A stretch of DNA of 64,000 nucleotides from an uncultured Chloroflexia bacterium (GTDB taxonomy: Bacteria; Chloroflexota; Limnocylindria; Limnocylindrales; CSP1-4). The notes under the pieces are model-generated. The model was given only the letters and a program-made list of their open reading frames with translations, ran no database searches and had not been told where the DNA came from. The stretch spans positions 3,766,325 to 3,830,324 of the forward strand of contig OY969796.1 in NCBI GenBank assembly GCA_963703155.1. Direction: 5' to 3'. The position numbers and the translations under genes were made by a program. Each line of letters begins with the position of its first letter. The first letter of the stretch is position 1. Shown here in pieces: positions 10,465-62,329 of this stretch.

Positions 10465-10488
10465 GTGTCTACGTGTCCTCCTCACGGG

Positions 10489-14180: not shown

Positions 14181-14194
14181 TTGAAGCGCTTCAA
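14181..14194. promoter_or_regulatory. perfect 14-bp palindrome TTGAAGCGCTTCAA, a LacI-family operator candidate; related half-sites at 14339-14350 and 14403-14416
   Basis: Located in the rhaT/rhaR divergent intergenic region. The motif recurs three times. Confidence 0.5.
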
Positions 14195-45907: not shown

Positions 45908-47372
45908 GGCTCGCCGCCGCGCCCACCAGCGTCCGTCCGATCGCCTCGGGGACCTCTGCCGCCGATGGCCCGTGCGGCCGGCCGTCCTCCAGCCGTCGCC
46001 CGCGGACCCACGCCGCGCGGACCATGTCCGGATGCTGCCGGAAGATCAGCCGGCCGATCAGCTCCTCGGGCTCGTCGGCCTCGGCTCCGGGCACGGGCAT
46101 CGTGAACTGCGGGTCAACGGCGACCATGTCGGCCTCCTTGCCGGGTTCCAGCGAGCCCACCCGTTCGTCGATCCCGAGCGCCCGGGCGCCTTCGATCGTC
46201 CCGAGCGCCAGCCAGTCCAGCGGTGACATCGGCGAGATCCGCGAGATCGGCGCCAGGGCCGTCGTCGAGTCGGCGTCGGCCGTCGCGCGCAGCAGCCCGT
46301 GCGTGTACGCACCCGCGCGCATGACCGAGAAGAGCGAGAGCGTGGGGCCTCCCGCAACGTCCGAGCCGAGCCCGACGACCAGACCCGCGGCCCGATACCG
46401 CGACAGCGGCATCGCCCCGCTCCCGAGGAAGAGGTTCGACTCCGGGCAGTGCGCGATGACCGTCCCCGTCTCGGCCAACCTGCCGATCTCGCGCGCGGAG
46501 AGGTGGATGGCGTGGGCCATGATCGTCCGCGCCCCGAGACCACCGGCCCGGTCGTAGACGTCAACGTAGTCGCGCGCGGCGGGGAACAGCCTCGCCACCT
46601 CGGCGAGCTCGTCCCGGTCCTCGGAGAGGTGCGTCTGCCAGTAGGCGCCCGTCGCCCGGGCCAGCACGGCAGACTCCCGGAGCAGCTCGGCGGTGCAGCT
46701 CACCGCGAAGCGCGGCGTGAAGGCGTACGAGAGCCGCCCGTCGTCACGCCCGTGCCACCGCTCGCACAGCTCGGCCGACTCGCGGAGCTCCACCTCGAGA
46801 CGCTGTTCCGGGGGTGTGTCACGGTAGGAGATCCGATCCATCATCACCCGACCCGCGACGAGCCGGATGCCATGCGCCTCCGCCGCCCGGAACGTCTCGT
46901 GCAGGCTCGGGGCCCACGCCGCGCCGTAGAGCACGACGGTGGTGGTCCCGAGCGCGGCCATGCGCTGGAAGGCGAGCGGCGCGAGGCTCGCCGCCGCCGG
47001 CCCGTCGAAGGTGCGCTCGAGCGGATAGATGTACCGCCCGAGCCACTCGAGCAGGTGGAGGCCCGCCCCGAGGCCCGCGTTGGGCAGCTGCGGCAGATGG
47101 GCGTGCAGGTCGATGAGTCCGGGGAGCAGGGCGAGCGGCCGGATGTCGACCACGCTCAGCCTCGGCTCCGGGCCCTGCTCGCGGGCCGCCTCCCAAGCCT
47201 CGTGGTCGGTGACCTCGGCGATCCGTCCGGCCGCGTCCACAGCGATGACGCCATCCGGGAGGAAGCGCGTGCCTCCCTCCCCGAGAGGAGTCACGATCCG
47301 TGCCCGGACCACGAATGGCCCGCGCCGCGGCAGGGCATCGAGTGCCCCGACCGCCTGTCGGTCGTCGGTCAC
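45900..47372 (-). CDS. guaD: guanine deaminase (amidohydrolase family)
   Basis: PGLIDLHAHLPQ motif plus the HxxE (HLSE), HA/HCP and D motifs. The start is uncertain; GTG 47372 was chosen. Confidence 0.7.
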   Translation of the reverse strand: MTDDRQAVGALDALPRRGPFVVRARIVTPLGEGGTRFLPDGVIAVDAAGRIAEVTDHEAWEAAREQGPEPRLSVVDIRPLALLPGLIDLHAHLPQLPNAGLGAGLHLLEWLGRYIYPLERTFDGPAAASLAPLAFQRMAALGTTTVVLYGAAWAPSLHETFRAAEAHGIRLVAGRVMMDRISYRDTPPEQRLEVELRESAELCERWHGRDDGRLSYAFTPRFAVSCTAELLRESAVLARATGAYWQTHLSEDRDELAEVARLFPAARDYVDVYDRAGGLGARTIMAHAIHLSAREIGRLAETGTVIAHCPESNLFLGSGAMPLSRYRAAGLVVGLGSDVAGGPTLSLFSVMRAGAYTHGLLRATADADSTTALAPISRISPMSPLDWLALGTIEGARALGIDERVGSLEPGKEADMVAVDPQFTMPVPGAEADEPEELIGRLIFRQHPDMVRAAWVRGRRLEDGRPHGPSAAEVPEAIGRTLVGAAASHG

Positions 47373-47500
47373 GCCGCGATGATGCGACGAGCGCCCCGGG
47401 GGCGGCGAGGGCCGAACCTCCCGCAGGCGGAGGCCCGGGTTGACGCCCCGACGAACACTCCGTGCCGTCATGATGGGGATCGAGCCGGTGCGAGCAAGGA

Positions 47501-47986
47501 GTGGTCGTGAAGACAATGGCGGGCATCCTCCCGTGGGCCGTCGTCCTGGCGGCGGCGGGGGGCGCGATCTGGTGGATGCTGTCGATGGACATGGCCGCGG
47601 GGCGGTGGCTGTTGGCCGCCGTGCTCATCGGTCACGGCGTGGTGCACCTCATGTTCGCGGTGCCTGCGCCGACGGCGACCGCGAACGGTCCCGCCTGGCC
47701 GTTCGACATGGCACGCTCGCGGGTCGTCCGGGTCGGCGTGAACCTCACCTTCGTCCGCGCCGTCGGGGTGGCCCTGATCGCCGTGGTCGTCGGCGGCTTC
47801 GCGATTGCCGCCCTGTCGACGGTCGGCATCCTGGTGCCAGCCGGCTGGTGGCAGGCGAGCGTTGCGCTCTCGGCCGTCGCATCCGCGATCCTGCTGCTCC
47901 TGTTCTTCGAGCCGCAGCTCGTGCTCGGCCCCGGGATCGACGCCGTCCTCGTCGCGGCCGTTGCCACCGGGGCGTGGGCTCCCTGA
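47501..47986 (+). CDS. hypothetical membrane protein
   Basis: 161 aa with 4-5 TM helices. Confidence 0.5.
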   Translation: MVVKTMAGILPWAVVLAAAGGAIWWMLSMDMAAGRWLLAAVLIGHGVVHLMFAVPAPTATANGPAWPFDMARSRVVRVGVNLTFVRAVGVALIAVVVGGFAIAALSTVGILVPAGWWQASVALSAVASAILLLLFFEPQLVLGPGIDAVLVAAVATGAWAP

Positions 47987-48153: not shown

Positions 48154-48948
48154 ACGTCCATCACCGGCGAGCCGCTCGCCATCCCATCGATCCCCAACCT
48201 GCGCGATGTCGGCGGGTGCCCTACCCGCTCCGACCGGCGCGTCCGCTCCGGTCTCCTCTACCGGTCGTCTGGTCTCGCCGACATCGACGATTCAGACATC
48301 GCCGCGCTCGCTGGGCTGGGCATCCGGACGGTGTACGACCTGCGCATGGCCCAAGAGCAGGCATCGGCGCCCGATCGGCTCCCGCCAAGGACGCGGCACC
48401 TGCCCGTGGACGTCCTGGCCGGCTGGATGGAAGGTGGCCCGAGGCGGCTGTTCGTGTGGATGGAGGACGCGGCGGCCGCCCGCGCTGGCCTGGGCGACGG
48501 GGGTGCGGAGGCCCTCTGGACTGAGCAGTACCGCGCCTTCGTTCGACTTCCGAGCGCCCAGGCCGGGTATGGCGCGTTGTTCCGGGACCTTGCGATCGGG
48601 GGGCATCGGCCGGCGCTCGTGCACTGCGCCACCGGCAAGGACCGCACAGGCTGGGCCGCGGCCGCGCTGCAGCTCCTGCTGCACGTGCCTGAGGCCGCCG
48701 TGATGGCCCATTTCCTCGAGAGCCGACAGCACCTCGGGCCCCTGGTGGCGTCGATGCTCAACGCCATCAGCGCGCGGGGCGGCGACCCCGAGTTGTTCGC
48801 TCCCATCATGGACGTCCGCCCTGACTACCTCGAGGCCGCGCTCGATGAGGTACGGCACGGGTACGGGACGATCGAGCGCTACTTCAGCCATGGCCTGCAT
48901 GTCGATGGGGCCACGCAGGAGGCCCTGCGCATCGCCTTCACGGAGTGA
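48154..48948 (+). CDS. tyrosine-protein phosphatase family (PF13350-like) protein with an atypical start: ACG at 48154, 6 nt after GGAGGAG
   Basis: HCATGKDRTG is a CX5R P-loop. The conserved N-terminal IPNLRDVGG...YRSS lies in frame upstream of the first canonical start (GTG 48331), and no ATG/GTG/TTG is found back to the in-frame stop at 48058. Confidence 0.6.
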   Translation, partial: TSITGEPLAIPSIPNLRDVGGCPTRSDRRVRSGLLYRSSGLADIDDSDIAALAGLGIRTVYDLRMAQEQASAPDRLPPRTRHLPVDVLAGWMEGGPRRLFVWMEDAAAARAGLGDGGAEALWTEQYRAFVRLPSAQAGYGALFRDLAIGGHRPALVHCATGKDRTGWAAAALQLLLHVPEAAVMAHFLESRQHLGPLVASMLNAISARGGDPELFAPIMDVRPDYLEAALDEVRHGYGTIERYFSHGLHVDGATQEALRIAFTE

Positions 48949-49111
48949 TCTTGGCCGCGCGATGAGGCAGCCGCGATGGCCCCGACCGCGCGACCGGGCA
49001 ATGCCCATGACCCTGCTGGCCGGCGCCGACCCAGGGCGCTCGTCCCCGTTGACCAATTCCGCCGCTCTGTATACTCTATCCTCGATAATCGATGATTACT
49101 GGAGGACGACG

Positions 49112-49897
49112 ATGGCGGAGCTCGACAGGTTCAGGCTCGACGGCCGCGTCGCCCTCATCTCAGGTGGTGGCGGGGCCATCGGTTCGGCGATCGGGGCGGC
49201 GCTTGCGTGCGTCGGTGCCACGGTCGTGGTCGTGGATCGGACGAGCGAGCGTGCCGAGGAAGCAGCCGCTCGCGCGTGTGCCCTCGGCGGCGTGTGCATG
49301 GGCGTGACCGCGGACGTGACGATCGAGGCGGACGCCGAGCGGATCGTGCAGGAGACGCTCGACGCCCACGGCCGTCTGGACATCGTCGTCAACGCGGTTG
49401 GCGGCGGCGCTGGCCGCGTCCTGTTCGACGCCGAGGTGTACCCGCGCGACGCCTGGGACTGGATCTACGAGTTGAACGTCCGCAGCACCCTCGTGGCGAC
49501 CCAGCCGGCCGTGCGCGCGATGATCGCCGGCGGCCGCGGCGGCCGCGTCGTGAACATCTCGTCGGTGCGCGCCGCGCTGGGCATCAATGCGGGGTATTCG
49601 GCGTATGTCGCCGCGAAGGGCGCGATCAGCTCGCTGACCCGCCAGTGGGCGACCGAGTGGGCGAAACACGGCATCACCGTCAACGCCATCGCGCCCACGT
49701 TCGTGGACACCCCCCAGGTCGCGATGCTGCTGGACGACCCCGCGTTCAAGGCCAGCATCGTGAACAGGATCCCGATCGGCCGCGTGGGCGGGACCGATGA
49801 CCTCACCGGGGCCGTGCTGTTCTTCTGCTCGGACGCGGCATCGTTCGTGACGGGCCAGATCCTCGGCATCGACGGCGGCCTCACCGCGACCCAGTGA
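49112..49897 (+). CDS. SDR family oxidoreductase
   Basis: GGGGAIG Rossmann motif and the YxxxK catalytic pair (YVAAK). RBS GGAGGA. Confidence 0.8.
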   Translation: MAELDRFRLDGRVALISGGGGAIGSAIGAALACVGATVVVVDRTSERAEEAAARACALGGVCMGVTADVTIEADAERIVQETLDAHGRLDIVVNAVGGGAGRVLFDAEVYPRDAWDWIYELNVRSTLVATQPAVRAMIAGGRGGRVVNISSVRAALGINAGYSAYVAAKGAISSLTRQWATEWAKHGITVNAIAPTFVDTPQVAMLLDDPAFKASIVNRIPIGRVGGTDDLTGAVLFFCSDAASFVTGQILGIDGGLTATQ

Positions 49898-49919: not shown

Positions 49920-50879
49920 ATGAACCAGGCGACCGCGTTCAGGATGGAATCAGTCACGCCCAACGTGTTCACCCACACGAGGCTGCGCGGCTGCAACCCC
50001 AGCTTCGTGGTGACCTCGGACGGCGTCGTCGTCATCGACACGCCGCAGCTGCCGACGAAGGCCGTGGCCATGCGCAGGCTCGCCGAGTCGCACGGCCCAA
50101 TTCGGTACCTGATCAACACCGAGCACCACGTCGACCACATCTTTGGCAATTACTACTTCCGGGGCGCCGGCGCGGTGGTCAACCACCAGGAGCTGTACGA
50201 CCGGTTCATGGTGGTCTTCCCGGAGCTCGACCCCTTCGCCTACGCCTATAAATCGCTGCCCGGGACCAATCCCAAGGGCACCGACCTCGATGACCCGGAG
50301 GCCCTTGCCCTGTGGCCGGACCGGGATGCGTACTACTGCGACCCGAACAAGGGCACGATCGTGTTCACCGGCGACCTGACGCTGCACGTCGGCGACCACA
50401 CATTCAACCTGCTCCACACGCCCGGCCACACCCCCGGTCAGCTCGCCGTCCATGTCCCCGAGGAGCGGGTGGTGTTCACCGGCGACACGATCTTCTCGGG
50501 CTGCCAGACCTGGCTCATGACCTCCGACGTGGACCAGTGGCTCGTTGCGCTGGAGCGCATCGGGACCCTGGACGTGGACTGGATCTGCCCGGGCCACGGG
50601 CCGGTCGTGTCCAAGTCGTACCTCGATGTCCAGCGCGCCCACCTCCTGGACTGGAAGGCGGCCGTTGCGGACGCGATCGCCAAGGGCTGGTCACGGGAGG
50701 AGACGATCGCCCGCGTCAACTTCGTGGGCGTGTTCGGTCCCGTCGACATCGGCCAGGGGTACATGCTGGACTACATCCAGTCCCGCAACGCGGCAGCGCT
50801 CTACGACAAGCTGACGGGGAGCACGCCGCAGCTGACGGCCCCTGACGACACCGCGGCGCAGGCGGTCGCCGCCCGCTGA
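49920..50879 (+). CDS. MBL-fold metallo-hydrolase
   Basis: HHVDH (HxHxDH) motif plus downstream His residues. 319 aa. Confidence 0.75.
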   Translation: MNQATAFRMESVTPNVFTHTRLRGCNPSFVVTSDGVVVIDTPQLPTKAVAMRRLAESHGPIRYLINTEHHVDHIFGNYYFRGAGAVVNHQELYDRFMVVFPELDPFAYAYKSLPGTNPKGTDLDDPEALALWPDRDAYYCDPNKGTIVFTGDLTLHVGDHTFNLLHTPGHTPGQLAVHVPEERVVFTGDTIFSGCQTWLMTSDVDQWLVALERIGTLDVDWICPGHGPVVSKSYLDVQRAHLLDWKAAVADAIAKGWSREETIARVNFVGVFGPVDIGQGYMLDYIQSRNAAALYDKLTGSTPQLTAPDDTAAQAVAAR

Positions 50880-50905: not shown

Positions 50906-51534
50906 GGAGTCCGCCCCGTGCCCGAGACCATGCAGGCGCTCGTCGTGGTCGAGCCCAACCGCCTCGAGGTCCGCGAGGTGCCCGTGCCCGTGCCCGGGCC
51001 CAACGAGGTCCTCGCCCGCGTGCGCGCGGTGTCCATCTGCGGCACCGACGCCCACCTCGTCCGGGGCGACTACCCGGGCTTCTGGCCGCCCTCGTTCCCG
51101 TTCACCCCGGGCCACGAGTGGGCGGGCGAGGTGGCCGCCCTGGGCCCCGGCGCCGAGCGCTTCGGCTGGCGGGTGGGGGACCGGGTCGCGGGCACCAGCC
51201 ACGACGCCTGCGGCGTGTGCCAGAAGTGCGTCGAGGGCCGCTACAACCTGTGCGAGAACTACGGCCGGGCGGGGCTCCACCGGCAGTACGGCCACAGCGT
51301 CCAGGGCGCGGACGCCGAGTACGTCGTCCACGGGGTGAAGTCCGTGTTCCCGCTGCCCGACGCGCTCTCGTTCGACGACGGCGCGCTCGTCGACCCGGCC
51401 TCGATCGCGCTCCACGTCGCCAACCGCGGCGGCGTCGCCCCGGGCGACGCGGTGGCCGTCACCGGCGCCGGGGCCATCGGCCTGCTCGGCGGCGACGCCG
51501 CGCGGGTCCGGGGGGCGGCGCGCGTGATCGTCGT
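50906..51534. repeat. inverted repeat arm A (about 629 bp, apparently identical to 55548-56177 on the opposite strand), beginning at the RBS of the ADH gene
   Basis: All three reading-frame translations are identical between the two copies. Identity decays to roughly 85% protein identity beyond 51534. Confidence 0.75.
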
Positions 51535-51973
51535 GGGGAGAGGATCCCGGCTGGCGAAGGCGGCGGCCCTCGGGTTCGAGGTGGTGGACACCGCCGCCGG
51601 CGACCCGGTGGGGGCCGTCCGGGCCATGACCGGCGGCTTCGGCGTGGACGTCGTGCTCGAGTGCGCGGGGGTGCCCGCCACCGTTGAGTGGGGGCTCGAG
51701 ATGCTCCGGCGCGGCGGGCGCTGCGCGGCCGTGGGCATCCCCACCGTGGGCGTCGAGATCGCGATGCAGCGGCTCGTGCTCGACGAGATCGAGCTCGTCG
51801 GCTCGCGCGCCTCGGCGGGCGAGATGCGGCGCGTCATGCCCCTCGTGGAGCAGGGCCGGATGCGCGTGCGGGAGATGATCACGCATCGGTTCCCGCTCGC
51901 CGACTATGCGGAGGCGCTCGCCACGTTCAACGACCGCTCGAGCGGGGCCATCAAGATCATCATCGAGCCGTAG
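50918..51973 (+). CDS. zinc-dependent alcohol dehydrogenase (MDR family), copy 1
   Basis: GHEWAGEV, structural zinc Cys cluster CGVCQKC, and GAGAIG Rossmann motif. Confidence 0.8.
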   Translation: MPETMQALVVVEPNRLEVREVPVPVPGPNEVLARVRAVSICGTDAHLVRGDYPGFWPPSFPFTPGHEWAGEVAALGPGAERFGWRVGDRVAGTSHDACGVCQKCVEGRYNLCENYGRAGLHRQYGHSVQGADAEYVVHGVKSVFPLPDALSFDDGALVDPASIALHVANRGGVAPGDAVAVTGAGAIGLLGGDAARVRGAARVIVVGRGSRLAKAAALGFEVVDTAAGDPVGAVRAMTGGFGVDVVLECAGVPATVEWGLEMLRRGGRCAAVGIPTVGVEIAMQRLVLDEIELVGSRASAGEMRRVMPLVEQGRMRVREMITHRFPLADYAEALATFNDRSSGAIKIIIEP

Positions 51974-52021
51974 CGCAGAGTCGCGCGCGCCCATCCGCGG
52001 CGTGCTCGCCCGCGACGGTGC

Positions 52022-52867
52022 CTAGCCAGTCAGGTCCGCGAGGCCGAGGGTGAAGCCGCCGTCGACATCGATCGCCGCCCCGGTCACGAAGCGGCCGCCC
52101 GGCCCGCAGAGCCACGCGATCGCCTCCGCGACGTCGCGGCCGTCGCCAACCGTCGAGAGCGCCTGCCGCCCGAAGTTGGCCCCGGTCTCGAACCGCGCCC
52201 GCTCGTCGCCCTCGGCCAGGCCACGCAGCTCGCTCGGGATGATCCCCGGCCGGATCACGTTGACGCGGATGCCATCGCGCCCAAGGTCCACCGCCAGCGC
52301 CCGGGTCATCGCCTCCACCGCGCCCTTCGCGGACACGTAGCCGAACCGACCGCGCGGCGGCCGCGTCACCGCGGTCGAACCCAGGTTGATGACGACGCCG
52401 CGGTTCCGGCGGAGCTCCTCGAGGGCGGCGCGGGTGCACAGGAACACGCTGAGGACGTTGGCCCGCCACATGCCCTCGAGATCGGCCTCCGACAGCCGCT
52501 CGATCGGTCCCTGGACCTCGCTGCCCGCGTTGTTCACGAGGACGTCGATCCCGCCGAGGGCATCGACCGCGGTGGCGGCCATCGCCCGCACCCCGGCATC
52601 GTCGGTGACGTCGGCCACGACCGGGACGACGCGGCCGGGGAGGTCCGCCAGTTCGCTGGCGAGCCGATCGAGACGGTCGCCTCGGCGGGCGACGGCGACG
52701 ACATGCGCGCCCATCGCGGCCAGGTGCCGCACCATGTGCGCCCCGAGGCCGCTCGAGGCACCCGTCACGATGACCCGGCGCCCGGCGAGCGAGTGCGCCG
52801 GCGCGCCGGCGGGTGTGACGAAGTCGGCGGCCACGACCTTTCCCCCCGGTCCGGGTGCGCCCATCAC
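52022..52867 (-). CDS. SDR family oxidoreductase
   Basis: TGASSGLG Rossmann motif, NNAG, and YxxxK (YVSAK). Confidence 0.8.
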   Translation of the reverse strand: MMGAPGPGGKVVAADFVTPAGAPAHSLAGRRVIVTGASSGLGAHMVRHLAAMGAHVVAVARRGDRLDRLASELADLPGRVVPVVADVTDDAGVRAMAATAVDALGGIDVLVNNAGSEVQGPIERLSEADLEGMWRANVLSVFLCTRAALEELRRNRGVVINLGSTAVTRPPRGRFGYVSAKGAVEAMTRALAVDLGRDGIRVNVIRPGIIPSELRGLAEGDERARFETGANFGRQALSTVGDGRDVAEAIAWLCGPGGRFVTGAAIDVDGGFTLGLADLTG

Positions 52868-55041
52868 GCCCGCCCGGCAGCGGTCTCCGCAGCACGGCTG
52901 CGGCCGGCCAGCTGGATCAGGTCCTCGTGCAACTCGAACCAGATGCCGTGGTAGCTGTCCACGCGCGGCGAGGCGACATAGCGCTGGTCGCCCGCCTGGG
53001 CGGCAGCATTCGCCCGATCAAGGCGCTCCCGATACGCGGTGAGACGCGCGGGGGCCGACACCAGCGCGTCGAGCCAGGCCAGCGCGTCGAGGTGCAGCGC
53101 GGCGAGGTCGGCCAGGACCGCCGTGTCGTAGGCGGCATCCGAGTGGTCGTTGAACGCCTGGGCGCCCTCGACCTCCCGCATCTGCCAGGCCGTGACGGTT
53201 GACTTCATGCGGTGGTCCAGCGCGAGGAACGCGTCAAGCGCCCCCTCGGCGTTGGCGAGCCCCCACAGCTCCGTCTCCTCGGCGATCCGCTCCTTCGCGA
53301 TCGCCTTGCCGTCCGCGGTGAGCCGAAAGGATCCTGCGGCCATCTCCGCGAGCCCGTTCGCGACGAGCCCGTCGAGCACCGCGCTCGCCTCCTCGGACGA
53401 CACGAGGAGGGCTGTCCCCAGTCCTTCAGGGGTGGCGTAGCCCTTGACCGCGAGGACGCGGAGCCCGTCGTCGGCAGAGATGGCGCGCGGGCCCGCAGCG
53501 AACGGGCCCGCAGCGAACGGGACCGCCGGTGCGGCCGGGGCGCCAGATGCAGCCGAGGGGACCGTCTCCGGTCCTGGGGCGATCGGGATCCCGAGCCCCG
53601 CTGCCCAGGCTGCAAGCGTCGCCGCCTCCGGGACCACCGCGGCCGTGCCGGTCGCGGCTCCCGCGAAGACCTCGCCCGTGGTGCCGTCGATCGTGATGGT
53701 GTCCCCTGCCGACAAGAGACGGTCGCCAATCACCACCGATCCATCGCCAACCACGATGCTTGCGGCGCCGACCACCGCCGGGATGCCCCACCCACGGGCG
53801 ACCACGGCCGCGTGGCTTGCGAGCCCGCCCGTGGACGTCAGGACCCCGGCGGCACGGGCCATGCCGTGGACGTCATCCGGGGACGTCTCCGCACGGACCA
53901 GGATCACCGTCCGGCCGGCCTCCGCCGCCGCGACCGCGGCCTCCGGGGACGTCACGATCTCGCCGCACGCCACGCCGGGCGACGCCGCCAGGCCGGTCGC
54001 GATCGCGGGACCGACGTCGCCGCGCTCGGTGACCTCCGTCGGCGGATCGGCCAGGATCGACTGGACGCGCCGCACGGCCTCGGCCCTGGTCACCGGGAAG
54101 TCGGGATCCTCGGCCATGTCGCGCGCGATCCGGAGGGCGGCGTGGGGGCTGCGCTTGCCGACGCGGCACTGGAGCATCCACAGGCGCCCATGCTCGATCG
54201 TGAACTCGATGTCGCAGAGGTCGGCGTGATGGTGTTCCAGGCGTGCGGCGTAGTCGCGCAACTGCCGCCCCACCTCGGGAATCCGCTCGTCCAGCACCGA
54301 GATGGGCTCCGTCCGGTGCGTGCCGGCGACCACGTCCTCGCCCTGGGCGTTGAACATCACGTCGCCGTAGAGGACCGGCTCGCCGGTGGCCGGGTTGCGC
54401 GTGAACAGCACGCCCGTCCCCGAATCCACGCTTCGGTTCCCGAAGACCATCGCTTGAACCGTCACGGCCGTGCCCAGATCGTCGGGGATCCCCTCCCGCT
54501 CGCGATACGCCCGCGCCCGGTCGCCGTTCCAGGACCGGAACACGGCCTCGGTGGCGGCACGCAGCTGCTGCCACGGGTCCGCCGGCACGACCTCCGAGCC
54601 GACGATATCGCGGTACATCGTCTCGAAGCGGGACCTGCAGTTGGCCGCGAACTTGGGGCTCGAGGTGCGGGCGGCGAGGCCCGCCATGGTCGCGTCGTTG
54701 AGCCCGAGGTTGAGGATCGTGTCCATCATGCCGGGCATGGACACGGGGGCCCCGGACCGGACGCTCACGAGGAGCGGGTTGTCCGGATCGGCGAACCGCT
54801 GCCCCACTCCCTCCTCGATGTGCCCCATGTGGGCGCGCATCTCCGCATCGAGGCCCTCGGGCCAGCCGTGGGCGAGGTACTCGTTGCAGGCTTCCGTGGA
54901 CACGGTGAAGGCTGGCGGAACTGGGAGGTTCAGTTCAGCCGCCATCACGGTGAGGTTCGCAGCCTTGCCACCAACCAGGCGCTTGACCTCTTCGAATGTC
55001 AGGCCGTCGAACGGGTGGTCGCAGTCGAAGACGTAGGTCAC
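52864..55041 (-). CDS. PPDK/PEP-synthase-like phosphotransferase: N-terminal nucleotide-binding (ATP-grasp) domain plus phosphohistidine swivel domain, with a non-canonical ~230-aa helical C-terminal domain instead of a PEP/pyruvate TIM barrel
   Basis: PPDK_N-like N-terminus (GGKAANL...). His domain GGLASHAAVVARGWGIPAVVG. The linker has a tandem repeat VPFAAGPFAAGP. The C-terminus shows no PEP-utilisers signature. Confidence 0.65.
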   Translation of the reverse strand: MTYVFDCDHPFDGLTFEEVKRLVGGKAANLTVMAAELNLPVPPAFTVSTEACNEYLAHGWPEGLDAEMRAHMGHIEEGVGQRFADPDNPLLVSVRSGAPVSMPGMMDTILNLGLNDATMAGLAARTSSPKFAANCRSRFETMYRDIVGSEVVPADPWQQLRAATEAVFRSWNGDRARAYREREGIPDDLGTAVTVQAMVFGNRSVDSGTGVLFTRNPATGEPVLYGDVMFNAQGEDVVAGTHRTEPISVLDERIPEVGRQLRDYAARLEHHHADLCDIEFTIEHGRLWMLQCRVGKRSPHAALRIARDMAEDPDFPVTRAEAVRRVQSILADPPTEVTERGDVGPAIATGLAASPGVACGEIVTSPEAAVAAAEAGRTVILVRAETSPDDVHGMARAAGVLTSTGGLASHAAVVARGWGIPAVVGAASIVVGDGSVVIGDRLLSAGDTITIDGTTGEVFAGAATGTAAVVPEAATLAAWAAGLGIPIAPGPETVPSAASGAPAAPAVPFAAGPFAAGPRAISADDGLRVLAVKGYATPEGLGTALLVSSEEASAVLDGLVANGLAEMAAGSFRLTADGKAIAKERIAEETELWGLANAEGALDAFLALDHRMKSTVTAWQMREVEGAQAFNDHSDAAYDTAVLADLAALHLDALAWLDALVSAPARLTAYRERLDRANAAAQAGDQRYVASPRVDSYHGIWFELHEDLIQLAGRSRAAETAAGRA

Positions 55042-55106
55042 GGGTTCAGGCTCCAGGGATCCGAGGCGCGGTCACGAACCTGCGGACGAGCATCAGCGGC
55101 CACGCC

Positions 55107-56165
55107 TCACGGCCGGACGATGATCTTGATGGCCCCGCTCTTGGGGTCGTTGAAGGTGTCGAGGGCCTGCTGGTACTCGGCCAGCGGGAACTCGTGGGTC
55201 ATGACATCCCGCACGCGCATCCGGCCCTGCTCCACGAGGGGCATGACGCGCCGCATCTCGCCCGCCGAGGCGCGCGAGCCGACGAGCTCGATCTCGTCGA
55301 GCACGAGCCGCTGCATCGCGATCTCGACGCCCACGGTGGGGATGCCCACGGCCGCGCAGCGCCCGCCGCGCCGGAGCATGGCCAGTGCCCACTGCACGGT
55401 CACCGGCACCCCCGCGCACTCGAGCACGACGTCAACGCCGAAGCCGCCGGTCATCTCGCGCACGGTCGCGGCGGGATCTCCGACGCTCGAGTCAACCGTC
55501 TCAAACCCCATCTCGGCGGCCTTGGCGAGCCGCAGCGGGTTGCGCTCGACGACGATCACGCGCGCCGCCCCCCGGACCCGCGCGGCGTCGCCGCCGAGCA
55601 GGCCGATGGCCCCGGCGCCGGTGACGGCCACCGCGTCGCCCGGGGCGACGCCGCCGCGGTTGGCGACGTGGAGCGCGATCGAGGCCGGGTCGACGAGCGC
55701 GCCGTCGTCGAACGAGAGCGCGTCGGGCAGCGGGAACACGGACTTCACCCCGTGGACGACGTACTCGGCGTCCGCGCCCTGGACGCTGTGGCCGTACTGC
55801 CGGTGGAGCCCCGCCCGGCCGTAGTTCTCGCACAGGTTGTAGCGGCCCTCGACGCACTTCTGGCACACGCCGCAGGCGTCGTGGCTGGTGCCCGCGACCC
55901 GGTCCCCCACCCGCCAGCCGAAGCGCTCGGCGCCGGGGCCCAGGGCGGCCACCTCGCCCGCCCACTCGTGGCCCGGGGTGAACGGGAACGAGGGCGGCCA
56001 GAAGCCCGGGTAGTCGCCCCGGACGAGGTGGGCGTCGGTGCCGCAGATGGACACCGCGCGCACGCGGGCGAGGACCTCGTTGGGCCCGGGCACGGGCACG
56101 GGCACCTCGCGGACCTCGAGGCGGTTGGGCTCGACCACGACGAGCGCCTGCATGGTCTCGGGCAC
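55107..56165 (-). CDS. zinc-dependent alcohol dehydrogenase (MDR family), copy 2; paralog of 50918-51973
   Basis: The first ~214 aa are identical to copy 1. The remainder is about 85% identical. Confidence 0.8.
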   Translation of the reverse strand: MPETMQALVVVEPNRLEVREVPVPVPGPNEVLARVRAVSICGTDAHLVRGDYPGFWPPSFPFTPGHEWAGEVAALGPGAERFGWRVGDRVAGTSHDACGVCQKCVEGRYNLCENYGRAGLHRQYGHSVQGADAEYVVHGVKSVFPLPDALSFDDGALVDPASIALHVANRGGVAPGDAVAVTGAGAIGLLGGDAARVRGAARVIVVERNPLRLAKAAEMGFETVDSSVGDPAATVREMTGGFGVDVVLECAGVPVTVQWALAMLRRGGRCAAVGIPTVGVEIAMQRLVLDEIELVGSRASAGEMRRVMPLVEQGRMRVRDVMTHEFPLAEYQQALDTFNDPKSGAIKIIVRP

Positions 56166-56177
56166 GGGGCGGACTCC
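55548..56177. repeat. inverted repeat arm B (partner of 50906-51534)
   Basis: See arm A. Confidence 0.75.
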
Positions 56178-56187: not shown

Positions 56188-57075
56188 TCAGATGACGGCG
56201 ACGGGATCGACCATCGATCCAGTGGCGCCGCGGATCTTCACTGGGAGGGCCACGAACAGGAACTCGTACACCCGCTGGCGGGCGAGCTCCTCCAGATCGA
56301 GGCTCTCCATGAGGTAGATGCCGTTGTCGATCAACAGCAGCGTGTGCACGGGCTGAGGGTTGCCGGTCGGCCCGGGATCGGGAGCCGGCTGGACCTCGTA
56401 GGTCTCGGTGTCGGTTCCCGTGGCGACCACTCCCCGATCGAGGAGCCAGCGGGCCGCCGAGATGTCCGGCCCGGGCGTCTTGTGCGCCGCCATCCGCTCG
56501 GCGTCGGGCCACAGGGACATGTACCCGGTCCGGATCACGACCACGTCCCAGGGGCGCACCTCGACGGCCTGGGCTGCGCAGATGGCATCCATCTCCGCGG
56601 CATCGATCGGCGAGCCGTGCGGCAGGCACTCGACCCCGCGGTGGCCGGCCGCGTCGAGCAGCACGCCGCGCGTGAAGAACGGGGGCAGGGCGGAGGCATC
56701 GAGATGCGTCGGGCCGAAATCGCTCAAGTGGTCGTCGGCCCGCCCGCCGCCATGCCAGCGCATGTCCTCGCCGATGGTCATGTGCGCCAGCGCGTCGATG
56801 TGGGCGCCGGAGTGCGAGGTGGCCATGACGTACTCGGCCATGTAGCCGAGGCCAACGTCGTTGACCGGACCCCAGGGCTTGGCGCCGACAACCCGGATGC
56901 CCCGCGGCGTGCGGTAGTTCAGCACCTGGAACGGCGGGTGCCCCGGGAACAGCGGCATCCCAGGGAACCGCGCCGCCGCGAGCGAGATCGTCCTGCCTTC
57001 GCGGACCAGGCCCGCGGCGCGGACGATCTGCTCCGGGGGCAGCGATGCAATCGGACCGATGTCGAAAGCGGTCAT
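56188..57075 (-). CDS. cyclase family protein (kynurenine formamidase-like)
   Basis: HSGAHIDALAH motif. The ATG overlaps the upstream stop (ATGA). Confidence 0.75.
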   Translation of the reverse strand: MTAFDIGPIASLPPEQIVRAAGLVREGRTISLAAARFPGMPLFPGHPPFQVLNYRTPRGIRVVGAKPWGPVNDVGLGYMAEYVMATSHSGAHIDALAHMTIGEDMRWHGGGRADDHLSDFGPTHLDASALPPFFTRGVLLDAAGHRGVECLPHGSPIDAAEMDAICAAQAVEVRPWDVVVIRTGYMSLWPDAERMAAHKTPGPDISAARWLLDRGVVATGTDTETYEVQPAPDPGPTGNPQPVHTLLLIDNGIYLMESLDLEELARQRVYEFLFVALPVKIRGATGSMVDPVAVI

Positions 57076-59336
57076 GACCCGTGCTCCTCGCGCTCGTTGG
57101 CTGGCCGGTCGCGCAGCGCCCGCCAGACGCGCTCTGGCGTCAGCGGCAGGTCTCGGACGACCACGCCGGTCGCCTCCCGGACGGCGGCCGCGACGGCCGG
57201 CGCCACGCACAGGAGCGCCCCCTCGCTCATGCCCTTGGCACCGTAGGGGCCCGGGCCGTCGCCGTTCTCCACCATGTCGCTGATCAACTCGAGCGGCAGG
57301 TCCATGCTGGTGGGGATCCGGTAGTCGATGGCGCCGAGGTTCCGGATTCGCCCGGCGTCGTCAAAGATGTACTGCTCCATCAGGGTGTGGCCGAGGCCCT
57401 GGATGGCGGCCCCCTCGTCCTGCGTCCGGACCTGGAGCGGGTTGATCGCCTTCCCCACATCGGACACGGTCACGTGGCGCACCACCGTCACGTCGCCGGT
57501 GCCCTCGTCGACCGCCGCCTCGATCGCGGTGCAGTTGAACTCGAAGAACGCGGGTGCGCCGCCGAGCGGGTGGTCCGGATCCGCGTCCTTGCGCATCTCG
57601 CCGTTGCCAACCAGCTCGCCGCCCAGCCGGCCCAGCCCGGGTCCGAGCAGGTCCCGGATCGAGAGGTCGCGGTCGGGCAGCGAGACGACGCCCCGGTCCA
57701 CGCGGATCAAGGCCTCGTCGAGGCCGTGGACGCGAGCCGCCATCGCCCGCAGCTTGCCTTGGATCTCGCGGCACGCCGCCAACACGGAGTTGCCCATCAG
57801 GACGGTGGACCGGCTCGCCGAGGTCTGCTGGTCGTACGGCACCACGGCCGTGTCGCCCATGATCACCGTGACCCAGTCCAGCGGGGCCCCGAGCTCCTGA
57901 CCGGCGATCTGGGCCAGCACGGTCCGCGCTCCCTGGCCCATGTCGGACGTGCCGGCGTAGACGACAACGCTGCCGTCGGCGAGCAGCCGGACGGTCGAGT
58001 AGGACAGCCCGGTCGTCGGCCCCGACTTGATCCCAACGGCGATGCCGCGCCCGTGTCCGGGCGGCCTGGGCGTGTCCCAGCCGATGAGCGCGGCAGCCCG
58101 CCGAACCACCTCTGCCCAGTCCCCGTCGGCGGGCGTGTCCCAAGGGATGAACGCCTCGCCCGGCCGGGCCAGGTTCCGCAGCCGGATCTCCAGGCGGTCC
58201 AGGCCCAGGATCAACGCGGCCTCGTCCAGGTTGGACTCCACCGCCCAGTTCACCTGCGGGTTGCCGAAGCCGCGCATCGCCGTCGACGGCACGGTATGGG
58301 ACAGGATCGGGCGGGCGACGATCCGGGCAGCCGGCATCCGGTACGGGCCAGCGCCCAGGTAGCTCCCCTTGCCCACCACCCGGTCGGCGATGTCGACGTA
58401 GGCGCCGATGAGATAGTCCGCCTCGATGTCCTGGAAGCAGATCGTCCCGTCGGCTCGGAGGCCGGTCCGGACGTGCACGTCGGACGCGGCGCGGCGGACC
58501 GCCTGGAACGTCTCCTCGAGCGTCAGCACCAGGCGGACCGGCCGCCCCGCCCGCAGCGCCATGAGCGCAACCAGCGGCTCGTACTTCGCGTGCTGCTTGC
58601 CACCGAAACCGCCGCCCGGGTCCGGGGCGACGACGCGGACCTTCGCGAGGGGCAGGCCGGTGATCTCGGCCAGAATCCGCTGCAGCCAGTTGGGGTGCTG
58701 GACCGTGCTCCACATCACCAGGCCGTCCCCGTCGGGGGCGGCGATGTAAGCGTGCGGCTCGATGGCGAACTGGGTGATGATCGGGAACGTGTAGCGGTGG
58801 TCCACGACCAGGTCGGCGGGCGTCGCGTCGACATCCCCCCAGCCCACCCGGTGCTCGCGCAGGATGTTGGATCCCGAGAGGGGATCCTTCGGCCGCCGCG
58901 ACGGGTCCTGGACCAGCGGTGCGGCGGGGGCGAGGGCACCGGCGATCGTCGTGACCGCGGGCAGCTCCTCGAAGGTCACGCGGACGAGCGCCGCAGCCTC
59001 CTGCGCCGCGTCCTTCGTCTCGGCTGCCACGATGGCCACCGGCTCGCCGTGGTACTTGACCTCGTCGACGGCCAGCACCGGGCGATCCCGGTACTGCGGT
59101 CCGAAGCGGGGGACGGGCTGCGGGAGGTCCGCGGCTGTCAGCACCAGCCGGACGCCAGGAACGCGCAGCGCCTCGCTCGTGTCGATCGCGACGATCCGGG
59201 CGTGGGCGCAGTCGATGGTCACCAGCTTCGCGTGCAGCTCGCCCGCGAGGTGGACGTCCGCGACGTACTCCTGGGCGCCCGTGACGCGATCGATCCCGCC
59301 TACCCGGTTGGGAGATGCCCCCACGCGCGCGGTCAT
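57072..59336 (-). CDS. xanthine dehydrogenase/CoxL-family molybdopterin-binding large subunit
   Basis: About 754 aa. N-terminus VGGIDRVTGAQEYVADV and GGGFGGKQ. Stop/start overlaps with the neighbouring genes. Confidence 0.8.
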   Translation of the reverse strand: MTARVGASPNRVGGIDRVTGAQEYVADVHLAGELHAKLVTIDCAHARIVAIDTSEALRVPGVRLVLTAADLPQPVPRFGPQYRDRPVLAVDEVKYHGEPVAIVAAETKDAAQEAAALVRVTFEELPAVTTIAGALAPAAPLVQDPSRRPKDPLSGSNILREHRVGWGDVDATPADLVVDHRYTFPIITQFAIEPHAYIAAPDGDGLVMWSTVQHPNWLQRILAEITGLPLAKVRVVAPDPGGGFGGKQHAKYEPLVALMALRAGRPVRLVLTLEETFQAVRRAASDVHVRTGLRADGTICFQDIEADYLIGAYVDIADRVVGKGSYLGAGPYRMPAARIVARPILSHTVPSTAMRGFGNPQVNWAVESNLDEAALILGLDRLEIRLRNLARPGEAFIPWDTPADGDWAEVVRRAAALIGWDTPRPPGHGRGIAVGIKSGPTTGLSYSTVRLLADGSVVVYAGTSDMGQGARTVLAQIAGQELGAPLDWVTVIMGDTAVVPYDQQTSASRSTVLMGNSVLAACREIQGKLRAMAARVHGLDEALIRVDRGVVSLPDRDLSIRDLLGPGLGRLGGELVGNGEMRKDADPDHPLGGAPAFFEFNCTAIEAAVDEGTGDVTVVRHVTVSDVGKAINPLQVRTQDEGAAIQGLGHTLMEQYIFDDAGRIRNLGAIDYRIPTSMDLPLELISDMVENGDGPGPYGAKGMSEGALLCVAPAVAAAVREATGVVVRDLPLTPERVWRALRDRPANEREEHGS

Positions 59337-59809
59337 CGGCCGGTCTCCTCGGCCGTCGCGAGGACGGCCTCGCTGATCTGCGCGTACCCGGCGCAGCGGC
59401 ACAGGTTCCCGGCCAGGCCCTCCTGGACCTCGGCGAGCGTCGGGTGCGGCGTGCGGGCCAGCAGGTCGTGGGCCGCCATCAGCTGGCCGGGGATGCAGAA
59501 GCCGCACTGCGCGGCGCCATGGTCGAGGAATGCCTGCTGGAGGCGCGTCAGCGGCCCATTCTCCGCAAGTCCCTCCACCGTGGTGACGCTGCTGCCGTCG
59601 GCCTCGACGGCGAGCACGAGGCACGAATCCACGATGCGCCCGTCCAGGCTGACGGTGCAGGCACCGCACTCGCCGACCAGGCAGCACTCCTTGGTGCCGG
59701 TGAGGGCCAAATCGTCGCGCAGCACGTCCAGCAACGTGTGATGGGGCGCCACCCGGAGCGACCGCGGTCGGCCGTTGACGGTGATCGTGATGGACACGAG
59801 GTTCGGCAT
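59333..59809 (-). CDS. (2Fe-2S)-binding small subunit (CoxS-like)
   Basis: CLVGECGACTV, CGFCIPG and CRCAGY motifs. Confidence 0.8.
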   Translation of the reverse strand: MPNLVSITITVNGRPRSLRVAPHHTLLDVLRDDLALTGTKECCLVGECGACTVSLDGRIVDSCLVLAVEADGSSVTTVEGLAENGPLTRLQQAFLDHGAAQCGFCIPGQLMAAHDLLARTPHPTLAEVQEGLAGNLCRCAGYAQISEAVLATAEETGR

Positions 59810-59813
59810 CACG

Positions 59814-60677
59814 TCACTCCCCAGCCGCCAGGCGACCAATCGCCGTGCGGATCGCGCGCTCACCCAGCACCCGGAGCATCGCGAGCCGGTACTCGGGACT
59901 CGCCCGCATGGAGCGCGGCGACGGGCTGGCATCGGCGAACATCCGCTCCAGGACGGCAGCCATCGCCTCCCGCGGCGCTGCCGGGTTCGCGAGGACGCCG
60001 CTGTCGTCCACGCCGAGCACGGGCCGGGGGCCGACGCTCCCATAGGCCAGGCGGGTCACGCCGGCCCGATCCACCGTGCAGGCGAGCGTCACCGAGGCCA
60101 GATCGTGGCCCCGCCGGCGGGTGCGGCGCACGTGGGTTGCGCCGAGGGGTCCGGCGCGCAGCGGGATCTCGACGGCGGTCACGAGTTCGCCCCGCCGGAG
60201 CGTGGTGACGCCCGACCGGACGAAGAAGCGGTCGATCGGGATCCGGCGCACGCCGTCGGGGCCCACCGCGATCACCTCGGCCCCGTACACGAGGAGCGAG
60301 GGCGCGGTGTCGGCCGCCGGCGATGCATTGCAGATGTTGCCCACCAGCGTCGCCCGGTTCCGAACCTGCACCGAGCCGACGACCTCGGCTGCCTCGGCAA
60401 GCGCGGTCAGGTGCGTGCGCACCCGCGAGTCGGCGGCGACGTCGGTCATGACCACCGTCGCGGGGATCACGAGACGGCCATCGGCCTCCCGGATCACTGG
60501 CTCCAATGCTGCGATCCGCTTGACGTCGACGACGACGCTCGGCGTGGCTGACCCGTCACGCAGCCGGATCACGAGGTCCGTGCCACCGGCGAGGACGCGG
60601 GCGTCAGGCCCGCGTTCCGCCAGGATGGCGACGGCCTCGGCGATCGTCGTCGGCCGGGCGTAGGAGAACGTGCGCAT
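59814..60677 (-). CDS. FAD-binding subunit (CoxM/XdhB-like molybdopterin dehydrogenase FAD domain)
   Basis: LAGGTDL and TLVGNICNASPAAD motifs. 287 aa. Confidence 0.8.
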   Translation of the reverse strand: MRTFSYARPTTIAEAVAILAERGPDARVLAGGTDLVIRLRDGSATPSVVVDVKRIAALEPVIREADGRLVIPATVVMTDVAADSRVRTHLTALAEAAEVVGSVQVRNRATLVGNICNASPAADTAPSLLVYGAEVIAVGPDGVRRIPIDRFFVRSGVTTLRRGELVTAVEIPLRAGPLGATHVRRTRRRGHDLASVTLACTVDRAGVTRLAYGSVGPRPVLGVDDSGVLANPAAPREAMAAVLERMFADASPSPRSMRASPEYRLAMLRVLGERAIRTAIGRLAAGE

Positions 60678-60692
60678 GGTCGGGAACCGCCC

Positions 60693-61511
60693 CTAGAGGA
60701 TCCGGTCGACCTCGTCCAGGAGCACCTGGGGAGTCGCCGCACGGATGAAGTAGAAGGGCCGCTCGCAGAAGCGGGCGACGAAGTCGGCGCGCCTGGCGCG
60801 CAGGCCGTCGTTGTCCACCAACGGCATGACGTGCCCCGGGGCGAGCAGCTCGTTGGTGAGGAAGTAGTTCTGCAGTGAGTGGAGGAACTGGAACTGGCGC
60901 TCGAACGGGATCAACTCGTTCGTCGCAGGGTCGAAGTTGCCATCGATTGCCGGGACGATGACGAGATCGATGTTCGGGGTGCCGTTGAACATGCCCCAGG
61001 TCGGCATGCTGCCCCAGAACTTCTCGACGCCCTTGTTGGGCGCTGCCTTGTCGGACCGCTCCGTGCCCTCGGTCCGCTTGCGCAGGAACGTGTCGACCGA
61101 GCCCATGGCCGCGCGGCCTTCCTCGTCGATGACCGTGGTCTCGGAAGCGACCTGGAGTGCGCCGCGGACGCCGGCCTCGATCAGCCCCATGCTCTTGCCG
61201 TGGTTGGACTCGCCGCCCAGGAACAGCATCGTCCTGCCGCGGTAGTGCACGGCGGCACTGTGGGACGGGTGGAGGCCAACGGCCTCCATGCGGAGGGCGA
61301 GCACCGCGACGATCACCTTCTGGATGGGCCCAGCGGGCCAGTCGCCGCGGAACGTCACCGTCCGGCCGTCGTACGAGACCTCCTTCGCGCCCTCCTGGAG
61401 GACCAGGATGTCGGGCTCGGGCAAGGTGACCTCGGGCGAGATGCGGACGTCGGCCAGGCGGTAGTTCGAGGAAGGTGAGGTCGTCGAGGACATGGTCGCG
61501 CGGTCCGCCAC
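60693..61511 (-). CDS. hypothetical P-loop protein with an HPr-kinase-C-like motif (LFLGGESNHGKS)
   Basis: 272 aa. A Walker-A-like GxxxxGKS sits in a context resembling HprK-related kinases. No other signature was found. Confidence 0.4.
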   Translation of the reverse strand: MADRATMSSTTSPSSNYRLADVRISPEVTLPEPDILVLQEGAKEVSYDGRTVTFRGDWPAGPIQKVIVAVLALRMEAVGLHPSHSAAVHYRGRTMLFLGGESNHGKSMGLIEAGVRGALQVASETTVIDEEGRAAMGSVDTFLRKRTEGTERSDKAAPNKGVEKFWGSMPTWGMFNGTPNIDLVIVPAIDGNFDPATNELIPFERQFQFLHSLQNYFLTNELLAPGHVMPLVDNDGLRARRADFVARFCERPFYFIRAATPQVLLDEVDRIL

Positions 61512-61613
61512 CCAGCACGTCCACGCGGAGTCGCGCGGCGCCCGCCGAGAACTCTTCGGTCAGCTGCAGCTTGTCGTTCATCGCGTCCTTTCGCGGGGAT
61601 GGGCCAGGCCGCG

Positions 61614-62321: not shown

Positions 62322-62329
62322 GGCGCGGG

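Follow-up and report, generated by a model that had tools for sequence, protein, structure and literature searches.

The inverted repeat and the two dehydrogenase genes

The 64,000-nucleotide (nt) stretch analyzed here (the window; contig OY969796.1, positions 3,766,325 to 3,830,324 of the forward strand, GenBank assembly GCA_963703155.1) came from an uncultured Chloroflexia bacterium and carried two zinc dehydrogenase genes of the medium-chain dehydrogenase/reductase (MDR) superfamily that faced each other on opposite strands and shared a long inverted repeat. The first, ADH_G (50918..51973, plus strand), encoded a 351-amino-acid (aa) protein with the motif VIVVGRGSRLAKA (Gly207-Arg208) and was the last gene of a unit made up of a short-chain dehydrogenase gene (SDR_L), a metallo-beta-lactamase-fold gene (MBL) and the dehydrogenase itself. 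The second, ADH_E (55107..56165, minus strand), encoded 352 aa with the motif VIVVERNPLRLAKA (Glu207) and lay between the genes for a putative cyclase and for a protein resembling pyruvate phosphate dikinase (PPDK-like). Pfam placed ADH_N (GroES-like) and ADH_zinc_N domains above the cut-offs in both dehydrogenases, a short-chain dehydrogenase (SDR) domain in one further gene (SDR_R) and PPDK_N plus PEP-utilizers domains in the PPDK-like protein, in agreement with the gene identities given by an earlier, sequence-only reading of this DNA.

A repeat search of 49.0-58.5 kb returned a perfect inverted repeat with arms at 50906-51534 and 55549-56177, each 629 nt long, 100% complementary and 4014 nt apart. 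The identity of the arms was upheld by direct string comparison, the bases flanking both arm ends differed, and blastn of an arm against the whole window found no third copy beyond the two arms. The repeat began 12 nt 5' of both GTG start codons, enclosed the GGAG ribosome-binding site and included 617 coding nt. The left arm (50906..51534, plus strand) comprised the 12-nt ribosome-binding-site spacer, codons 1-205 and 2 nt more of the Gly207-type gene, its coding part spanning the catalytic domain and, within the Rossmann fold, the GxGxxG part; the right arm (55549..56177, minus strand) repeated these 629 nt at the start of the Glu207-type gene. The claim of the sequence-only reading that the 5' halves are base-identical, ribosome-binding region included, was thus borne out: the nucleotide comparison showed one identical block, free of scattered synonymous differences. 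The shared N-terminal part was also real, although it was shorter than the roughly 214 codons first estimated, the two proteins being identical through residue 206 and different from residue 207 on. The segment between the arms measured 4.0 kb rather than 3.5 kb and included both 3' gene parts.

The 3' thirds of the genes did not show the even identity of about 85% that had been proposed; they formed an uneven mosaic. The 629-nt tract was followed by a block that was about 56% identical and had a 3-nt indel, then by identical runs of 20 and 29 nt, then by a second perfect tract of 173 nt, and finally by gene tails of about 70-75% identity. The first divergence island (51535..51700, plus strand, in ADH_G; partner at 55380..55548, minus strand, in ADH_E) extended from codon 207 to about codon 262 and covered the loop after Rossmann strand beta-B and the next helix; overall it was about 56-73% identical to its partner, contained the 3-nt indel and was type-specific across genomes. 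The second perfect tract (51701..51873, plus strand) was the reverse complement of 55207..55379 (minus strand). The second island was the C-terminal tail (51874..51973, plus strand; 55107..55206, minus strand), which corresponded to residues ~320-351 and carried the type-diagnostic Arg341 in ADH_G and Pro341 in ADH_E. The identity tracts were therefore discrete and sharp-ended, covered synonymous as well as 12 non-coding positions, and were bounded by blocks of 56-75% identity.

Chance was ruled out as the source of a 629-nt perfect run, because unconverted paralog pairs were only 79-85% identical and the probability of 629 straight matches is then about 0.82^629, or roughly 1e-54. Purifying selection alone, with an extreme constraint on the catalytic domain holding the 5' halves identical and no recombination involved, can practically be dismissed. 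In MDR enzymes generally, the catalytic domain is indeed better conserved than the rest, but the identity was 100% at synonymous sites over 617 coding nt and over 12 non-coding nt, and protein constraint cannot erase synonymous differences. Moreover, related genomes differed by 9-23% in the same segment, and the paralogs of other lineages by 12-18%.

Related loci and the age of the two gene types

The locus was compared with 98 related loci drawn from species-representative genomes (among the matches listed), from the contigs of the closest homologs and from JGI metagenomes. The query for the metagenomes was an alignment of the C-terminal domain that is specific to this PPDK-like family, and that for the species-representative genomes was the full protein, where relatives were at most 63% identical among the matches listed. 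Eight cluster genes were mapped on 96 of the 98 loci by tblastn; L168 and L169 were read from called-gene tables. The best-matching named metagenome-assembled genomes (MAGs) belonged to Chloroflexota among the matches listed. Genes were split by apparent frameshifts in L084 (12962-14146), L087 (5710-7958), L009 (10001-12144) and L083 (1220-2532). Such frameshifts in the long contigs of relatives appear typical of an uncorrected long-read consensus, and gene calls there need care.

The canonical order ran from the gene for the molybdopterin subunit of a xanthine-dehydrogenase-family enzyme (XDH) through cyclase, ADH_E and PPDK-like to SDR_R on one strand, with SDR_L, MBL and ADH_G converging on it from the opposite strand. 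This arrangement with two complete dehydrogenase genes was seen in 14 loci (the window, L081, L083-L087, L105, L111, L115, L124, L145, L168 and L169). In the more distant Chloroflexia MAGs L002 and L003, both dehydrogenase genes followed one another in tandem, flanked by the cyclase and PPDK-like genes; many related loci retained only one of the two genes, or neither. The dehydrogenases fell into two types. Glu-type proteins (VI.IERNP.RLAKA, 352 aa, 35 sequences) were normally encoded after the cyclase gene and before the PPDK-like gene, and Gly-type proteins (VIVVGRG.RLAKA, 351 aa, 37 sequences) normally after the MBL gene. When the 37 Gly-type and 35 Glu-type sequences were compared, the types were separated by position 207 (Gly or Glu), the loop indel at 209-210 and position 341 (Arg or Pro).

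L002 and L003 had both types as well, at a PPDK-like protein identity of only 62% to the window. Since both types occupied conserved positions in relatives down to this level of identity, the duplication that produced them is old, not recent. The perfect identity, which includes the 12-nt upstream spacer, does resemble a fresh copy, and a recent inverted duplication of the gene or of its 5' two-thirds, with the 3' parts differing through partial duplication or fusion, would account for that feature. However, both copies were found in 17 genomes at the same two positions, the type-specific islands and the one-codon length difference were shared at 62% PPDK-like identity, and several lineages held copies at 79-85% identity that had no long tract. 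A single duplication also cannot generate the interleaved 629-nt, island, 173-nt and tail blocks. A recent duplication, which the sequence-only reading had named as an alternative to gene conversion, is therefore very improbable and is contradicted by the type-specific islands and the conserved positions in distant relatives; the comparison with related genomes that it had asked for showed gene conversion between old paralogs.

A few loci departed from the usual pairing of type and position. In some single-copy loci a Gly-type gene occupied the slot that is normally Glu-type: L103 (3428-4480; order cyclase, Gly type, PPDK-like), L159 and L005 (14591-15643; order cyclase, Gly type, MBL). A Gly-type gene in the Glu slot is a possible product of deletion between tandem copies, or of full-length conversion followed by loss. 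L098 carried a hybrid loop (VILVGRTPRRLAKA).

Identity within and between genomes

Within-genome identity profiles were obtained for the 17 genomes with both copies. The perfect 5' tract was 617 coding nt in the window, 619 nt in L086, 601 nt in L083 (plus 310 nt at 650-959), 573 nt in L082, 501 nt in L002 and 140 + 395 nt in L003. The copies in the other 11 genomes were 79-86% identical with no identical run longer than 100 nt. Over nt 1-500, the two genes were 100% identical within each of these six genomes, and the identity between the six genomes was 77-91%, showing that each genome had its own recent conversion event, with at least six independent events in total.

Same-type and cross-type identities were then contrasted over 105 genome pairs. 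Same-type minus cross-type identity was +1.0 points in nt 1-600 (positive in 46% of the pairs) and +0.9 points in nt 787-959 (positive in 40%); the lack of a type signal in these two blocks indicates repeated homogenization of both in all lineages. By contrast, the difference was +7.4 points in nt 602-786 (positive in 100% of the pairs) and +6.3 points in nt 960-1056 (positive in 95%), a type signal showing that the two islands kept their orthology throughout. The boundaries recurred between genomes. The 5' tracts ended at nt 617 (window), 619, 601, 574, 536 and 503, none of them past codon 207, and the middle tract ended at nt 959 in the window, L083 and L086 alike. In L083 the first island was reduced to 48 nt (602-649) with identical sequence on either side. 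No asymmetry that would point to a conversion donor was detected, the nearest unconverted relative, L081, being equally distant (89%) from the window tract with both of its copies.

The tandem loci were informative about arrangement. L002 (7813-9967) and L003 (677-2850) had the order cyclase, Glu type, Gly type, PPDK-like, and their copies nevertheless carried perfect 5' tracts, indicating that conversion did not depend on the inverted arrangement. The repeats in these two loci are direct and would mediate deletion.

An assembly or polishing artefact, in which the arms would not be truly identical or the inner orientation would be arbitrary through a collapsed and re-used repeat, has to be taken seriously for the short-read contig L082 (573-nt repeat, 14x coverage). 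As an explanation of the tracts in general it is quite improbable. The PPDK-like protein of the window was found in identical form on a contig of 4,153,430 bp, suggesting long reads or a finished genome, in which a 0.6-kb repeat is easily spanned. Perfect tracts with the same boundary at codon 207 recurred in independent contigs of 274-280 kb (L083, L086); L002 and L003, on MAG contigs of 0.18-0.77 Mb, had perfect tracts too, and the sequence was a different one in each case. In addition, the end of the tract fell on a functionally meaningful codon and not at an arbitrary point. The assembly collapse that the sequence-only reading had considered is thus unlikely, given the 4.15-Mb contig and the recurrence of the pattern in the long-read contigs L083 and L086.

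The perfect repeat, the mosaic, the antiquity of both types and the recurrent, independent homogenization with a fixed boundary are direct observations. Together they point to recurrent gene conversion between ancient paralogs, to which we assign a probability of about 0.85, and the comparative identity data across genomes showed that gene conversion, as first suggested, was the source of the mosaic. The 629-bp repeat would then be a very recent interlocus conversion tract joining two ancient, convergent zinc MDR paralogs of a conserved catabolic cluster. Homologous recombination, which we infer to be RecA-dependent, would repeatedly copy the 5' ~600 nt, which encode the catalytic domain, the loop of the structural zinc and the first part of the Rossmann fold, from one gene to the other, and the middle block at nt 787-959 would be copied likewise. 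The outcome would be two enzymes with a shared, co-evolving substrate-binding part.

The probable cofactor loop and the persistence of the islands

Both dehydrogenases contained the catalytic zinc ligands (Cys41, His66-Glu67 as GHE), the four cysteines of the structural zinc (Cys98/101/104/112) and a GxGxxG motif (GAGAIG at 183-188). Their best solved relatives in phmmer searches were threonine, sorbitol and alcohol dehydrogenases (E-values 1e-44 to 1e-48). No named equivalog was reached in NCBIfam, the best models being IolM (215-221 bits, cut-off 450) and Tdh (196-210 bits, cut-off 380).

In the phmmer alignments to solved structures, residue 207 fell on the Asp that ends strand beta-B in three NAD-dependent relatives, 2dq4 (ILVSD), 4cpd (ILAID) and 1pl6 (VVVTD), which are Thermus thermophilus threonine dehydrogenase, a Thermus alcohol dehydrogenase and human sorbitol dehydrogenase, respectively. 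Across the MDR superfamily, an acidic residue at the end of beta-B holds the adenine-ribose hydroxyls of NAD and keeps out the 2'-phosphate of NADP; at that place, members that depend on NADP carry a small residue and, next to it, a basic one. The loops of the two types read Gly207-Arg-Gly and Glu207-Arg-Asn-Pro, with a one-residue indel. When the corresponding residues of Pichia stipitis xylitol dehydrogenase were replaced (D207A/I208R/F209S), the Km for NADP fell from 170 mM to 0.9 mM and the cofactor preference was reversed (PMC3334502, Table 2). On the basis of this reversal and of the alignment of residue 207 to the NAD-binding Asp, ADH_G (Gly207-Arg208) is predicted to prefer NADP(H) and ADH_E (Glu207) to prefer NAD(H).

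Two islands remained unhomogenized in every lineage, namely the post-beta-B loop (Gly207-Arg-Gly in one type, Glu207-Arg-Asn-Pro in the other) and the C-terminal ~33 residues (Arg341 or Pro341). We lean toward selection for separate cofactor preferences as the force that preserves the first island. Such selection would maintain a preference for NADP(H) in one enzyme and for NAD(H) in the other.

Gene neighbourhood

The PPDK-like gene (52864..55041, minus strand), which lies inside the potentially invertible segment, encoded 725 aa with a PPDK_N ATP-grasp domain and a PEP-utilizers swivel-His domain, and its product passed the NCBIfam model PRK05878 for short PPDK-type proteins. The protein was without the phosphoenolpyruvate (PEP)/pyruvate-binding TIM-barrel domain of true PPDK. 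Its C-terminal ~190 aa (residues ~540-725) had no Pfam match and contained the invariant motifs K.TVTAWQ and ASPRVDSYH..WFELHEDL, which were kept in more than 400 metagenome loci. SDR_R (52022..52867, minus strand), a short-chain dehydrogenase gene, overlapped the PPDK-like gene by 4 nt and was the last of the minus-strand unit; it converged with ADH_G, leaving 48 nt between the two stop codons.

On the left outer flank, MBL (49920..50879, plus strand) lay directly upstream of ADH_G and was preceded by SDR_L, a short-chain dehydrogenase gene listed as an open reading frame (ORF) at 48845..49897 (plus strand). The true start of SDR_L is probably near 49.1 kb, as relatives were called at 261 aa. 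On the right outer flank, the gene for the putative cyclase (PF04199; 56188..57210, minus strand) lay directly upstream of ADH_E; the gene probably starts later than the ORF as listed, relatives being called at ~296 aa. Upstream in the same minus-strand unit came the gene for the molybdopterin subunit of the XDH-family enzyme (57072..59687, minus strand), next to CoxS-like and CoxM-like subunit genes (59333-60677, minus strand). The complete minus-strand order was PEP-utilizer/Rph-like, GntR/FCD regulator, a gene of no known function, CoxM-like, CoxS-like, molybdopterin subunit, cyclase, ADH_E, PPDK-like and SDR_R; the plus-strand order was SDR_L, MBL and ADH_G, and the two units converged. 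A 38-nt inverted match of 74% identity between 49604-49641 and 52302-52339 reflected distant paralogy of SDR_L and SDR_R (~35% protein identity), and each convergent unit thus held one SDR and one MDR dehydrogenase.

The part of the cluster at 56188-63970 (minus strand) was conserved in L081 and L083-L087, and the relatives also showed a UPF0261 gene and a PEP-hydrolase-like gene. Further members of the cluster were a second PEP-utilizer/Rph_4th protein, the GntR/FCD regulator, a 295-aa uncharacterized protein and the three-subunit XDH-family enzyme. The cluster looks like a catabolic pathway with two dikinase-like proteins, possibly for an N-heterocyclic or phenolic substrate. Left of the cluster, 43640-47516 (minus strand) held the gene for a second XDH-family molybdopterin subunit (43640-45907) and an amidohydrolase gene (45900-47516), which may belong to the same pathway. 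In L168, a 6.5-kb block (8837-15275) with two genes of the isochorismatase family and five genes for an ABC transporter of the branched-chain amino-acid type stood between the PPDK-like gene and SDR_R; it is a possible hint at the substrate of the pathway or its uptake. No promoters or terminators were found in 48.5-57.5 kb, by a scan for the sigma-70 consensus that is uninformative for a 72% G+C genome probably without E. coli-type signals.

Inversion of the segment between the arms

Homologous recombination requires a minimum of tens of bp and becomes efficient above ~200 bp. The repeat, with 629 perfectly matching nt and arms 4014 nt apart, exceeds this length and, as the sequence-only reading had stated, is a valid substrate for homologous inversion in both length and identity. 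A reciprocal crossover within it would invert the 4-kb segment, thereby detaching the Glu-type 3' half and the PPDK-like and SDR genes from the XDH-cyclase operon and attaching them to the SDR-MBL operon. Such an inversion would not, as had been suggested, swap which dehydrogenase is co-transcribed with the PPDK-like and SDR genes. Because the crossover falls in the identical 5' part, the distinguishing 3' part travels with the segment and the Glu-type 3' half remains just ahead of the PPDK-like gene; the one thing to change is the operon upstream (XDH-cyclase or SDR_L-MBL).

The related contig L082 had this flipped arrangement, with SDR_L, MBL, ADH_E, PPDK-like and SDR_R on one strand and cyclase followed by ADH_G on the other. 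This is exactly the order that a crossover in the 5' tract would produce, flank-specific spacers being attached as predicted. The PPDK-like protein of L082 shared 82% identity with that of the window and 88% with that of the canonical L081. Among assembled contigs, 14 of the 15 convergent two-copy loci were in the canonical orientation, as were all six long contigs taken as long-read (the 4.15-Mb source contig of the window and L083-L087, which have Flye-style 'contig_' names), three of which carried tracts of at least 600 nt. The idea of an inverting segment was thus only partly supported, one contig having the exact flipped order. Homologous inversion must occur at some low rate and may have been fixed once in a close relative; whether the L082 inversion is real we regard as somewhat doubtful, at a little under even odds.

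The PPDK-like gene has been linked to either unit in evolution, repeat-induced misassembly aside, since the more distant lineages L126, L127 and L162 had MBL and PPDK-like genes in the same direction with no dehydrogenase gene between them; in L167, SDR_L preceded the PPDK-like gene. These arrangements, which cannot be repeat-induced misassemblies, bear on the possibility that the repeat is a functional switch, kept because inversion rewires the PPDK-like and SDR genes and the cofactor-specific halves between differently regulated operons. Such a switch would also fit the occurrence in nature of both linkages, XDH-cyclase-ADH_E-PPDK-like (common) and MBL-ADH_E-PPDK-like (L082, L107), and the position of the ribosome-binding site inside the repeat, by which both recombinant genes would stay translatable. 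We nonetheless consider it unlikely. No site-specific recombinase gene was found within ~7-10 kb in the window or in the gene tables of relatives: Pfam detected only metabolic and regulatory domains, and no recombinase domain, among the larger window ORFs in 43.6-64 kb, and no recombinase family appeared within +/-10 kb in the gene tables of nine related loci. The prevalence of one orientation also argues against a switch, as do the lack of a long perfect tract in most lineages, which shows that the repeat is not maintained as such, and the lack of promoter-like sites in the segment in a scan limited to the sigma-70 consensus. Nothing indicates a regulated or frequently used switch.

A programmed site-specific switch of the Hin/Gin, FimB/E or shufflon type was also considered and rejected; no recombinase gene was found among the larger window ORFs in 43.6-64 kb or in the gene tables of nine related loci, and the repeat was 629 nt of largely coding sequence of two functional paralogs, not a pair of ~10-40 bp sites. 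In L107 (4880-6487), the first ~205 residues of the SDR_R homolog were fused in frame to a cardiolipin-synthase/phospholipase-D-like C-terminus, either through a chimeric metagenome contig or through a real rearrangement.

Discussion

Recurrent gene conversion between the two ancient paralogs can be placed in a wider, more tentative picture, which we hold to be possible and less than even in likelihood. In this modular system, selection would favor conversion that keeps the substrate halves of an NAD-type and an NADP-type enzyme in lockstep and would hold the 16-60-codon cofactor module and the C-terminal module apart, and the repeat would occasionally flip the PPDK-like and SDR genes between the two operons. 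If true, this would be a case of long-lasting, segment-restricted concerted evolution that acts on an accessory pathway in uncultured bacteria of soil and fresh water, and it would allow a direct measurement of how narrow a selected island can stay against conversion.

Several points weigh against parts of the main reading, that is, of conversion with selected islands and a possible inversion. The cofactor preferences come from homology alone, neither gene meets an NCBIfam equivalog cut-off, and we know of no characterized enzyme from the clade of ADH_G and ADH_E. The islands could persist partly for mechanical reasons, their divergence and indel blocking strand exchange or triggering mismatch-repair rejection; large heterology is known to block conversion tracts in tuf (PMC5485169). 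With regard to the inversion, L082 was the only complete inverted case, and it combined a SPAdes-style NODE name and 14x coverage with a 573-nt perfect repeat; its order is possibly an assembly choice, since a valid path through a de Bruijn graph can take the inner segment in either orientation. L107 showed the order MBL, ADH_E, PPDK-like on a contig that ended in the odd SDR-cardiolipin-synthase fusion. As its SDR gene was truncated and fused and its nearest relatives, L168 and L169, were canonical, L107 was rejected as an unreliable second example of inversion.

The gene conversion itself has practical consequences. Whole-gene trees of these dehydrogenases would be misleading, which matters for annotation, and a 0.6-kb perfect inverted repeat in the cluster can break or mis-orient short-read assemblies, so that the L082 order should not be taken at face value. 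Homogenization of part of a gene that ends at one functionally interpretable codon amounts to a natural experiment of conversion against selection. The data predict an NAD/NADP pair of enzymes with one shared catalytic domain.

Comparable patterns exist in other systems. In primate red and green opsins, conversion homogenizes most of the sequence and a few specificity residues stay different, and gene conversion has reportedly been documented in primate class I ADH genes as well. The present genes resemble both in that most of the sequence is homogenized and a few specificity-determining residues are kept apart. However, those are eukaryotic tandem genes with introns, whereas the present genes are bacterial and convergent, and it is the cofactor loop that is protected here instead of substrate or spectral tuning sites.

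The closest parallel is the bacterial tufA/tufB pair. Within-genome identity, an old duplication and discrete tracts, the sequence-level marks of tufA/tufB-type concerted evolution, were all found at the present locus. Hughes (2000) is said to have described tuf repeats mediating chromosomal inversion. The tuf copies are also the endpoints of chromosomal inversions (PMC6735719). As in tuf (PMC5485169; PMC6053082), the genes are ancient inverted duplicates, and paralogs within one genome resemble each other more closely than orthologs from different genomes do. Conversion tracts in Salmonella tufA/tufB reach on average ~500 nt to each side of the break, and mismatch repair reduces them (PMC5485169); the present tracts are likewise a few hundred nt long and end at heterology. 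The two systems differ in other respects. The tuf genes are homogenized over their full length, uniform function being favored, whereas homogenization here is partial and leaves two type-specific islands. The tuf copies lie hundreds of kb apart, whereas those in the window are 4 kb apart in one cluster, where an inversion comprises three genes' worth of DNA. Finally, the tuf genes are essential translation genes and the present ones are accessory catabolic genes.

A survey of bacterial concerted evolution reported 26 genes, mostly subunits of stable protein complexes, and its text mentions no dehydrogenase (0 occurrences; PMC6053082). The same criteria apply here, with synteny marking an old duplication and phylogeny grouping paralogs by genome in several lineages. 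The survey treated whole genes (PMC6053082), however, and the present signal resides in segments that whole-gene trees would miss or blur. The present pair thus adds accessory catabolic enzymes to the surveyed genes.

The cofactor loop has its counterpart in Pichia xylitol dehydrogenase, which belongs to the same superfamily and was altered at the same structural position, an acidic residue going with NAD and a small residue plus Arg with NADP. That enzyme is a laboratory construct, whereas here both versions appear naturally side by side on a shared gene body, with preferences that are predicted. As a process, concerted evolution of the tufA/tufB kind is known; the locus is a new example of it in an accessory catabolic cluster of uncultured high-G+C bacteria.

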